The position numbers were made by a program, and so were the translations under genes. Positions 53,395 through 54,956 of a DNA stretch of 64,000 nucleotides are shown here, one piece after another; positions within the stretch are counted from its first letter, which is position 1, and each line of letters begins with the position of its first letter. The notes beneath the pieces are model-generated. The model was not told where the DNA came from. It was given only the letters and a program-made list of their open reading frames with translations, and searched no databases. Source of the DNA: Dictyostelium discoideum (taxonomy: Eukaryota); assembly GCA_000004695.1 (NCBI GenBank), contig CM000152.2, positions 5,120,001 through 5,184,000 on the forward strand. The letters are read 5' to 3'.

Positions 53395-53783
53395 ATGAAT
53401 GATGTTTCTAGAATTTTCCCGGGATTTTATATCGGATCATTGCCAGCAGTAAATAGAAATACATTGGATAAATATCAAATCACACATGTTTGCAGTGTTT
53501 TAAATGAATTTCAACCAAAATGGACAAAGATTTACAAATATTTACATATTGACATCTATGATAGTCCATCGGTTGACATTATGAAATATTTTGATAAAAC
53601 TTTTCAATTCATTGAAGAAGGTAGAAAAGATGGTGGTGTATTAGTTCATTGGTATGATAATCAATAATTTATTTATTTATTTATTTTCTCATAACATAAT
53701 ATATGCAATACAAATTGTAGGGTGCTGATATTGATATTTCTGCAAAACTATTTATAAAAATTAAGAGTTAGTAAATATAAAAT

Positions 53784-53823
<40 letters not shown>

Positions 53824-54956
53824 CACTTGTTTTATATTTACTGAGTCTTTTTTTTTATAAATAGTTTTTCAGAAATATCAAGATCAGCGCTCTACAATTT
53901 ACTATCCTACACTTATTTTATATTTACTAACTCTTTATCTTTATTAATAGTTTTGCAGGAATATCAAGATCAGCTACAATTTGTATTGCATATATTATGA
54001 GAAAATTAAATATTTCATTTGAAGATGCCCATGGTTTAGTATCTGATGCTAGGCCAATCATTTACCCAAATGAATCATTTATCAAACAATTAAAGAAATA
54101 TGGTATGATATTATTATTAATTTTTTATTATTATTATTATTAATTTTATTACCATTACTAATCGGATTTCATTATTTTAGAATTAATTTTAAAGAAAAAT
54201 AGAGAAAATCCTCAAATTGTAGAAAAAGAAAGTGAAGAAGAGGATGATGATGAAGATGATGATGACGATGATTATGATAGTGATGAGGATGATGATGATG
54301 ATAGTGAAGATGATGACTTTGAAGAGGAGTTTGATAATGTAGTTAAAAAGAAGAATAATAATAATAAAAAAGTTAATGTTAAAAATACAACCAAAGTTTT
54401 TTCAAATATTTCAATTTCATCTGAACAAACTACCACTTCAACCACTACAGTACCAACACCAACACTAAACCCAGAAACAAAAATAGAAGAAACTACAACA
54501 ACAACAACAGCAACAGCAACAGCAACATTAGTAGAGGAAGTAGTAGAATCAACATCACCAAAAGCAACATTAGGTGAACATAGATACAGTTGTAGAAAAT
54601 GTTCTAAAGATTTATTTTTAGATTTTGATATTTTAGATCATGAACAAGGTCAAGGTCAAACATCATTTAAATGGAATAAAAGAGATAATACCACTTGTAA
54701 TAAGAGTGTGGGTGCAAATGGTGAACAAATTGAAGATCAAAATAAAGTTATTTGTACCTCTTATTTTATTAGTGAAATTGAATTTTCACTCTCTCAAACT
54801 TATTCAGGTATGGAAGGTAAATTATTTTGTCCATCTTGTAATGAAAAATTAGGTTCTTGGTCTTGGAGTGGTGAACAATGTTCTTGTGGTGCTTGGATCG
54901 CTCCAAGTTTTCAAATTCCAAAAACAAGAGTTGATGAAAAGAAAGTTCTCAAATAA
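53395..54956 (+). CDS. dual-specificity phosphatase DUSP12/YVH1-like (DSP domain + C-terminal Cys/His zinc-binding domain); 3 exons (53395-53651, 53951-54102, 54181-54956)
   Basis: Exon 1/2 junction TG|GTATGA...aatag|T restores the P-loop VLVHC-FAGISRSATICIAYIM (HCxxGxxRS). The exon 2/3 junction is TATG|GTATGA..ttttag|AA. The acidic linker is followed by C..C......C..C...C.C, characteristic of YVH1 (RYSCRKCSKDLF...LFCPSCNEKLGSWSWSGEQCSCGAWIAPSFQI). Confidence 0.8.
53711..53991. repeat. inverted + direct triplication of the DUSP12 intron-1/exon-2 junction around an (ATT)10 spacer
   Basis: L arm 53711-53789. Its reverse complement is about 90% identical to R2 53909-53991, which holds the real acceptor plus the first ~40 nt of exon 2. 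R1 53824-53901 is a diverged direct copy. (ATT)10 lies at 53790-53820. Confidence 0.7.

Follow-up and report, generated by a model that had tools for sequence, protein, structure and literature searches.

Why does the first intron of DDB_G0281963, a YVH1/DUSP12-type phosphatase gene of Dictyostelium discoideum AX4, carry an inverted and a direct copy of its own 3' splice junction, and do these copies, which are predicted to fold into a long hairpin in the pre-mRNA, serve the gene or are they tolerated by it? The locus lies in a window of 64,000 nucleotides (GenBank assembly GCA_000004695.1, contig CM000152.2, positions 5,120,001 to 5,184,000 of the forward strand), from whose first letter all positions given below are counted. 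Inverted and direct repeats were searched for across this window, and the arms L, R1, and R2 keep the names that they received in an initial annotation and are extended here. Judged from the alignments, the structure is a lineage-specific, young local duplication of the gene's own splice junction and not a mobile element. We propose, with moderate confidence, that this inverted-plus-direct duplication has been tolerated because it is self-insulating, the two copies pairing with each other under a compensatory ratchet, and that it is no evolved regulator.

The anatomy first described for this intron, consisting of arm L, an (ATT)n spacer, the direct copy R1, and R2 with the true acceptor, was recovered by both the repeat search and the gene model, and turned out to be larger than described. 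In AX4, L (53712-53789) and R1 (53823-53900) form an inverted pair of 78 nt that is 88% complementary across a 33-nt spacer, and L (53724-53789) and R2 (53909-53974) form one of 66 nt that is 92% complementary. An outer inverted pair that had been overlooked joins 53682-53720 to the exon-2 bases 53974-54012 (39 nt, 85% complementary), and R1 and R2 are direct repeats of each other (76 nt, 86% identical, 86-nt period). The proposal that the exon junction supplied the sequence of the repeats agrees with the alignment of the arms to R2: when L is reverse-complemented, 94 of the 100 bases aligned agree with R2, and the initial 27 nt, TACTAAC included, show no difference. Relative to its source, L carries a 4-nt insertion and a 5-nt duplication, and it differs from R1 at 11 of 85 bases within AX4. 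R2 holds the branch box TACTAAC (53926-53932) and the acceptor AG (53949-53950), and R1 holds a pseudo-acceptor AG (53863-53864) and a degraded branch box, TACTGAG (53839-53845). The initial annotation had allowed that the arms might be a generic repeat present at many unrelated sites; within the 64-kb window, they had no further match, with 0 expected from shuffles. Likewise, an Rfam scan of 52500-55500 (E <= 1) returned sub-threshold chance matches only, none of them on the hairpin. The intron 1 region reads identically in an independent AX4-type assembly, and diverged versions of it exist in three other genomes, so the structure is not an assembly artefact.

Comparison with relatives dates the structure and identifies its source. 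The orthologous locus was retrieved via the protein from seven other assemblies. L, R1, and R2 are all present in AX4, in L005 and L006 (both labelled D. discoideum), and in D. cf. discoideum (L001), which together constitute the four alleles compared here, three of them closely related. The duplication is absent at the same intron position in two D. citrinum assemblies, D. dimigraforme, and D. purpureum, where the unduplicated orthologous introns measure 110 and 122 nt, 65 nt, and ~65 nt, respectively; these lengths suggest an ancestral intron 1 of about 65-120 nt. The comparison of orthologous introns proposed at the outset thus found conservation, as each of the four diverged alleles has kept the structure. 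The 42 intronic nt of R2 correspond in the alignment to the 3'-terminal stretch of the short outgroup introns, with a CTAAY box ~20-25 nt before the AG in each case (TACTAAC in R2; TCTAAT, TCTAAC, and ACTAAT in the outgroups), and the exon part of R2 encodes the conserved P-loop. It follows that the gene itself supplied the sequence of the arms and that nothing foreign was inserted. Exon divergence from AX4 amounts to ~2% in L005 and L006, 3-4% in D. cf. discoideum, and 6-8% in D. citrinum, which, together with the distribution, places the event between the split from citrinum and the later one from cf. discoideum.

The inverted-direct-direct order of the copies indicates at least two duplication steps, and it rules out a single-event origin, which would leave the inverted copy in the middle; the exact order of the steps cannot be recovered from the present sequences. 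L and R1 share a derived insertion at CAG^CTAC that is not in R2 (L/R1 lengths of 4/4, 6/6, 6/6, and 2/1 nt in the four alleles), both carry TATAAATAG where R2 has TATTAATAG, and a C>T change is common to L and R1 in D. cf. discoideum. These derived characters point to some arm-to-arm homogenisation or compensatory change. L also extends deeper into the exon than does R1 of any allele. At the palindrome centre, (ATT)n comprises 10 units in AX4, 7 in L005, and ~5 in L006, and it is missing in D. cf. discoideum, where a small centre deletion leaves L and R1 abutting; spacer insertion or centre deletion is the usual route by which long palindromes become stable.

The strong hairpin anticipated in the initial annotation was reproduced by RNA folding, in which the 391-nt region reached -126.5 kcal/mol compared with -57.5 +/- 4.7 kcal/mol for shuffles (z = -14.75). 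In AX4, L005, and L006, the inner part of L is paired with R1 in both the minimum free energy (MFE) structure and the ensemble, and its outer part with exon-2 bases ~24-62; the 33 pairs of the outer helix are 97.7-100% paired in the four alleles. With inner L taken by R1, the predicted AX4 ensemble buries only exon-2 bases ~24-62, and neither the true branch site nor the acceptor. For the true branch box together with the 3' splice site, the mean unpaired probability comes to 0.24-0.52 among the three D. discoideum alleles and to 0.20-0.36 in the outgroups, so that it is not reduced where the duplication is present; for exon-2 bases ~23-62 it is 0.06-0.15 in the four alleles versus 0.44-0.58 in the outgroups. 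The earlier expectation that a stem would bury the branch and acceptor region along with the first ~40 nt of exon 2 is therefore to be divided: burial of the splice signals fails in three of the four alleles, where R1 takes L, and is predicted at equilibrium only in D. cf. discoideum, and within exon 2 it is bases ~24-62 that are predicted to pair.

Transcription as far as the 3' end of R1 is enough, in the predicted folds of the four alleles, for the L:R1 hairpin to form (-79 to -95 kcal/mol), so that kinetically L should be occupied before R2 exists. The L+R2 duplex is nevertheless stronger than L+R1 in every allele (AX4: -112.5 vs -92.9 kcal/mol), and forcing R1 to remain unpaired costs 10.8-20 kcal/mol out of ~110-125, which makes a second conformation conceivable. 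The sense strand appears to be favoured for L:R1 pairing: in the three D. discoideum alleles, an L+R1 duplex gains 16-21 kcal/mol in stability when it is formed from sense rather than antisense RNA. For L+R2, the difference between strands is not consistent, amounting to 0.1 to 4.1 kcal/mol in these three alleles and to 2.8 kcal/mol the opposite way in D. cf. discoideum, and the antisense-strand fold of the region pairs L with R2 instead of R1.

The copies have changed at close to the background rate. Between AX4 and D. cf. discoideum, L differs by 10.5% and R1 by 16.9%, in comparison with 10-16% in intergenic DNA and 6.4% in intron 2; in the true intronic part of R2, 0 of 41 bases have changed. 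By this measure, the primary sequence of L and R1 is not conserved above background and reads as near-neutral decay. Two features, the fate of the R1 branch box and the kind of mismatch between L and R1, do not look neutral. The CTAAY box is gone from R1 in all four alleles (TACTGAG, TGCTATT, TGCTGTC, and TATTAAG); TACTAAC is kept by R2 in all four and by the inverted copy L, which has no splicing role, in three. Use of the R1 acceptor would, by prediction, introduce a premature stop in three alleles and, in L005, an in-frame 30-aa insertion replacing the end of the P-loop. A productive role for R1 as an alternative acceptor is ruled out by the stop or the disrupted P-loop, together with the loss of the branch box in every allele, and from its sequence R1 looks like a disarmed decoy acceptor. 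In L005 (3459-3548, the allele of window 53865-53950), the pseudo-acceptor lies exactly 90 nt from the true acceptor, in frame, and its use would duplicate FAGISR.

The mismatches that have accumulated between L and R1 are biased by strand. Across the four alleles, transition mismatches appear as G·U in sense RNA at 12 alignment columns and as A·C at 2, where strand-symmetric mutation predicts 1:1 (binomial p = 0.013). The same classes of polarised change in flanking plus-strand genes number 27 versus 38 (Fisher p = 0.003 for 12:2 against 27:38), a lean in the opposite direction that rules out transcription-associated mutation asymmetry as the cause of the bias. The ratio is still 9:2 without the branch-box columns, and, measured against the full set of substitution types in intergenic DNA, wobble-type changes are over-represented (p = 0.002). 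The alleles in which the bias occurs are the D. discoideum ones. A formal pair count over the four alleles gave 97 pairs, of which 2 had changed on both sides and 11 on one side only. Overall, the substitution pattern is suggestive of RNA-level constraint on L:R1 pairing.

These observations point to the following course of events. A source comprising the last 42 nt of intron 1 and the first ~50-62 nt of exon 2 was copied back into the intron in both orientations, giving L (inverted) and R1 (direct), via at least two replication template-switch, fold-back, or slippage steps, after which the palindrome centre was altered by the (ATT)n spacer in D. discoideum and by the small deletion in D. cf. 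discoideum. In the pre-mRNA, we infer, L and R1, transcribed ahead of the real junction, would fold together co-transcriptionally as a ~78-bp hairpin that holds the antisense copy L off the real branch point and acceptor, and R1, its branch box lost, would be a dead decoy. The outer 39 nt of L would pair with exon-2 bases 24-62 and bring the intron ends together. The true acceptor would still be spliced, hence the structure would be tolerated, and, once L had arisen, L:R1 pairing would be worth keeping in the sense RNA without any dedicated regulatory function. A palindrome tolerated in this manner explains why the structure is distributed as it is, why its sequence changes at a neutral rate, why the decoy is disarmed and the mismatches lean towards wobble pairs, and why none of the three copies has been lost.

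Several results weigh against this proposal. The equilibrium fold of D. cf. discoideum pairs L with R2 and buries the acceptor (unpaired probability 0.00), so that insulation in this lineage would rest on the kinetic argument from modelled folds. Formal covariation was not significant, 60 of 500 shuffles reaching the observed score with four alleles of which three are close. The 14 alignment columns behind the G·U bias are few and do not all record separate events; in three of them, which belong to the R1 branch box, selection against the decoy could be the cause instead, and the bias is missing in D. cf. discoideum taken alone (4 vs 3). Eight transversion mismatches are also present, and the stem is decaying.

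Some of these results lend weight to a purely neutral relic, an explanation that we regard as possible but rather improbable, in which the structure is too young to have decayed, selection sees no RNA-level effect, and the G·U bias is an artefact of the small sample or of the branch box. The divergence between the paralogous copies (L vs R1, 10-13%) is about that of neutral orthologues (10-16%), and indels are many, the microsatellite has grown, and the R1 tail is truncated; the non-significant covariation controls and the lack of bias in D. cf. discoideum agree with this explanation as well. Neutrality does not, however, predict the departure of 12:2 from the 27:38 background or its persistence at 9:2 outside the branch box. 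Nor does it predict that the insertion lengths of L and R1 co-vary across alleles, that all three copies are retained in all four lineages, or that changes are concentrated in the branch box of R1 while the equally functionless L keeps its box.

An unlikely alternative, but one with a precedent in the same organism, is a hairpin-RNA or proto-microRNA (proto-miRNA) locus, at which a Dicer-like enzyme would cut the intronic L:R1 (or L:R2) stem and small RNAs from L, antisense to the P-loop exon, would lower the host mRNA. This would correspond to the "inverted duplication of the target gene" route to small-RNA genes, here within the target's own intron. The near-perfect sense-strand hairpin of 78-110 bp is, on the predicted fold and its z score of -14.75, an obvious Dicer substrate; a hairpin precursor of this kind lies inside the sense-strand intron in all four alleles, its structure is kept despite their divergence, and its mismatches are G·U-biased on the sense strand. 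Only one part of L (53695-53720) could yield perfectly matched antisense 21-mers, and against exon 2 these number six each in AX4 and L005 and two in L006. D. discoideum is known to make DrnB-dependent miRNAs from long sense-strand intronic hairpins (PMC6161686). On the other hand, D. cf. discoideum has zero perfect antisense 21-mers against the exon, and the arms evolve at an approximately neutral rate. The miRNA and candidate tables of PMC6161686, whose entries include introns of three other genes (DDB_G0293106, DDB_G0284713, and DDB_G0280709) and, on chromosome 3, two loci with different coordinates, contain neither this locus nor its chromosome-3 position. None of six arm strings of 10-13 nt occurred in the supplementary files of the D. 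discoideum and Amoebozoa miRNA papers PMC6161686 and PMC11014262, both of which filtered for miRNA-like precision. In the literature searched, no paper named DDB_G0281963, and the searches returned nothing specific on similar exon-derived intronic hairpins.

Still more speculative, and in our estimation quite improbable, is a newborn self-targeting small-RNA gene or splicing toggle residing in the intron of its own target. In such an arrangement, L would either be parked on R1, so that splicing is allowed, or invade the true junction or be diced to antisense small interfering RNAs (siRNAs) directed at the exon of the catalytic P-loop, and the phosphatase would acquire an autoregulatory loop in each case. 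A conditional splicing switch by itself seems very doubtful. Under this explanation, L would alternate between R1, a state in which splicing is allowed, and R2, a state in which the branch point, acceptor, and exon start are masked, thereby tuning output or causing intron retention. The energetics would permit as much, given the stronger L+R2 duplex in every allele, the cheap unpairing of R1 (10.8-20 kcal/mol), and an MFE structure in D. cf. discoideum that equals the masked state. No trigger, protein-binding site, or ligand pocket is evident, however; the alleles do not share the two states as conserved alternatives, and decay of the R1 tail in the AX4-type alleles favours a mixed fold over a clean toggle. 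Finally, the initial annotation had spoken of a MITE-like insertion (MITE, miniature inverted-repeat transposable element); an inserted mobile element of this or another kind that resembles the exon junction by chance has only its terminal-inverted-repeat-like look in its favour and is contradicted to the point of being scarcely credible, since the arms copy an adjacent unique junction that is ancestral and present in outgroups without the insertion (R2 being orthologous to the outgroup intron end and its exon part to conserved P-loop codons), no other copies lie within the window, the boundaries display no target-site duplication, and nothing matches in Rfam.

The features of the locus are collected in Table 1. 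The splice model of the host gene, rebuilt from the window sequence, has 3 exons on the plus strand and a 394-aa product equal in length to the D. discoideum AX4 protein of DDB_G0281963 (P0024; Q54T76), whose locus in the independent AX4-type assembly (L004) exhibits no substitution relative to the window across its whole length. The product contains a Pfam DSPc domain (E = 4.4e-32), and its best match in the PDB is yeast Yvh1 (6n8m_Y, E = 8e-30, two matched stretches). With this domain and Yvh1 as the best solved relative, the YVH1/DUSP12 label first given to the gene is reasonable and is retained. The HCxxGxxRS motif of the family is present near the N-terminus together with DSPc, as VHCFAGISRS spanning the exon 1/2 junction, across which VHCFAGISRSATIC is encoded; intron 1 splits the Cys codon of this motif (VHC|FAGISRS). 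A C-terminal CxxC...CxxC...CxC pattern is visible, a candidate for the cysteine-rich zinc-binding domain that is specific to the family.

Table 1. Positions of the host gene, its first intron, and the repeat copies (window coordinates)
Feature	Position	Strand	Description
Host gene DDB_G0281963	53395..54956	+	exons 53395-53651, 53951-54102, 54181-54956; YVH1/DUSP12-type dual-specificity phosphatase
Intron 1	53652..53950	+	299 nt; GT at 53652, AG at 53949-53950; phase 2
Arm L	53681..53789	-	~109 nt; inverted copy of last 42 nt of intron 1 and first ~62 nt of exon 2
Antisense stretch of L	53695..53720	+	26 nt, perfectly antisense to exon-2 53974-53999, codons for ATICIAYIM
Spacer/loop	53790..53822	.	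palindrome centre; (TAT)11, the (ATT)10 of the initial annotation; polymorphic
R1	53823..53908	+	decayed direct copy of the junction; exon-like part truncated after ~36 nt
R2	53909..54012	+	true junction, source of the copies; exon 2 from 53951
Exon-2 segment pairing with outer L (predicted)	53974..54012	+	partner 53682-53720; helix closes whole intron interior into a loop

Low-complexity sequence surrounds the arms. Most of the variation in intron length (260-351 nt) is caused by the flanking (TTTA)n and (ATT)n microsatellites, the former lying between the donor site and arm L (window 53670-53684; L006 3283-3350) with ~4 units in AX4 and ~17 in L006. An (AAT)n tract of ~25 units (window 53300-53375) stops 20 nt short of the phosphatase start codon and scores as an inverted repeat with the intronic (ATT)n spacer (53265-53352 with 53782-53869, 74%), which is a low-complexity effect. 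The unduplicated intron 1 of D. citrinum (L002 3300-3335) has a short hairpin of its own, CATCACTCATCATTTATATGATGATGGGT, without sequence relation to the D. discoideum arms. L005 and L006 differ from AX4 (window 50395-57956) by ~2% in exons and 6-9% in intergenic DNA, and their region upstream of ~52400 aligns poorly with AX4. Divergence of this extent is large for one species, and the two may be cryptic lineages.

Other observations concern the surroundings of the gene. The phosphatase gene is preceded, at a distance of ~2.7 kb and on the same strand, by an Argonaute-type gene (48775-50692, plus strand), with PAZ and the start of Piwi in the open reading frame (ORF) 48775-50055 and the remaining Piwi in the ORF 50138-50692, and in the L004 assembly, a small PAZ-annotated gene (L004 1103-1713) sits between the two. 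We treat the proximity of the Argonaute gene as a coincidence with respect to the hairpin. The other long inverted repeats in the window (arms <=1 kb apart) are 70-83% complementary and thus fall below those of intron 1. The one among them that was inspected, 14710-14990, consists mostly of A/T runs; it is intergenic (14710-14793 with 14907-14990, 84 nt, 83% complementary) and has poly-A/poly-T flanks. Its core, in which AACCGACGGTTATGGTTGGATTTTTTAC pairs with GTAAAAAATCCGACTATAACCGTTGGTTT, is not low-complexity, and the repeat may be transcribed as a hairpin or serve as a bidirectional promoter element.

The locus holds a genuine structural oddity, confined to one lineage, whose origin can be explained and for which any regulatory function is putative. 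If it is only a tolerated duplication, it provides a clean and datable example of a splice junction copied in both orientations into its own intron, and shows how a gene copes with such an event, the decoy acceptor losing its branch site and the antisense copy being parked on the decoy. If, instead, the hairpin is processed or switches, the locus would represent a small-RNA or structural regulator at its birth from its own target; under the self-targeting small-RNA reading, it would give the Amoebozoa their first example of a small-RNA gene born through inverted duplication of its target, seen early enough for the source to be still adjacent. Sister-lineage intermediates exist, in that D. citrinum is without the structure and D. 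cf. discoideum has a spacer-less form, and Dictyostelium is genetically tractable, with knockouts of every Dicer, Argonaute, and RNA-dependent RNA polymerase gene.

Known systems resemble the locus in part. Like a MITE, it is a short non-coding insertion with inverted arms in an intron, but its arms come from flanking unique sequence, are single-copy in the data examined, and lack a target-site duplication. Replication-based rearrangements of the fold-back/template-switch, DUP-TRP/INV-DUP type give adjacent inverted and direct copies, and here too inverted and direct duplicates lie beside their source, with a palindrome centre later changed by a spacer or deletion; the scale, however, is ~100 nt and not kilobases to megabases, and the inverted-direct-direct order is not that of one classical event. 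In yeast introns, "zipper" helices reportedly shorten the effective distance between the 5' splice site and the branch point (Goguel and Rosbash, 1993, are said to have described this), and the internal helix at the present locus would similarly loop out ~190 of 299 nt and leave the splice signals at short-intron spacing. The yeast helices, by contrast, are short and contain no copies of splice junctions, and the outer helix here uses exon bases. Editing-site complementary sequences, which usually lie downstream of the exon, form exon-intron duplexes for A-to-I editing in ADAR targets such as the GluA2 Q/R site, and share with this locus an intronic stretch complementary to the neighbouring exon and a pre-mRNA duplex with coding bases. 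They have no decoy copy, though, and serve editing, and, to our knowledge, ADAR is an animal enzyme family that Dictyostelium is without. The feature cannot be filed under either ADAR substrates or yeast zipper helices.

Within D. discoideum, mir-1180 (intron of DDB_G0293106) and mir-7102 (intron of DDB_G0284713) each yield two adjacent DrnB-dependent duplexes from long sense-strand hairpins (PMC6161686). The likeness lies in the long sense-strand hairpin within an intron of a protein-coding gene of the same organism, and the difference in that the stem at DDB_G0281963 is longer, is made from the host exon junction, and is outside the published tables. Young plant MIRNA genes are said to arise by inverted duplication of their target genes (a model attributed to Allen et al., 2004), and hairpin RNA (hpRNA) loci of Drosophila are sources of endogenous siRNAs. 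These systems share with our locus an inverted part-copy of a coding gene, a long hairpin still complementary to the parent, lineage specificity, and fast decay. They differ from it in that the copy here, which is not known to give small RNAs, resides in the parent's own intron, takes in the splice junction, and is accompanied by a direct decoy copy. By analogy, then, the architecture most resembles that of hairpins born from the inverted duplication of a target gene.

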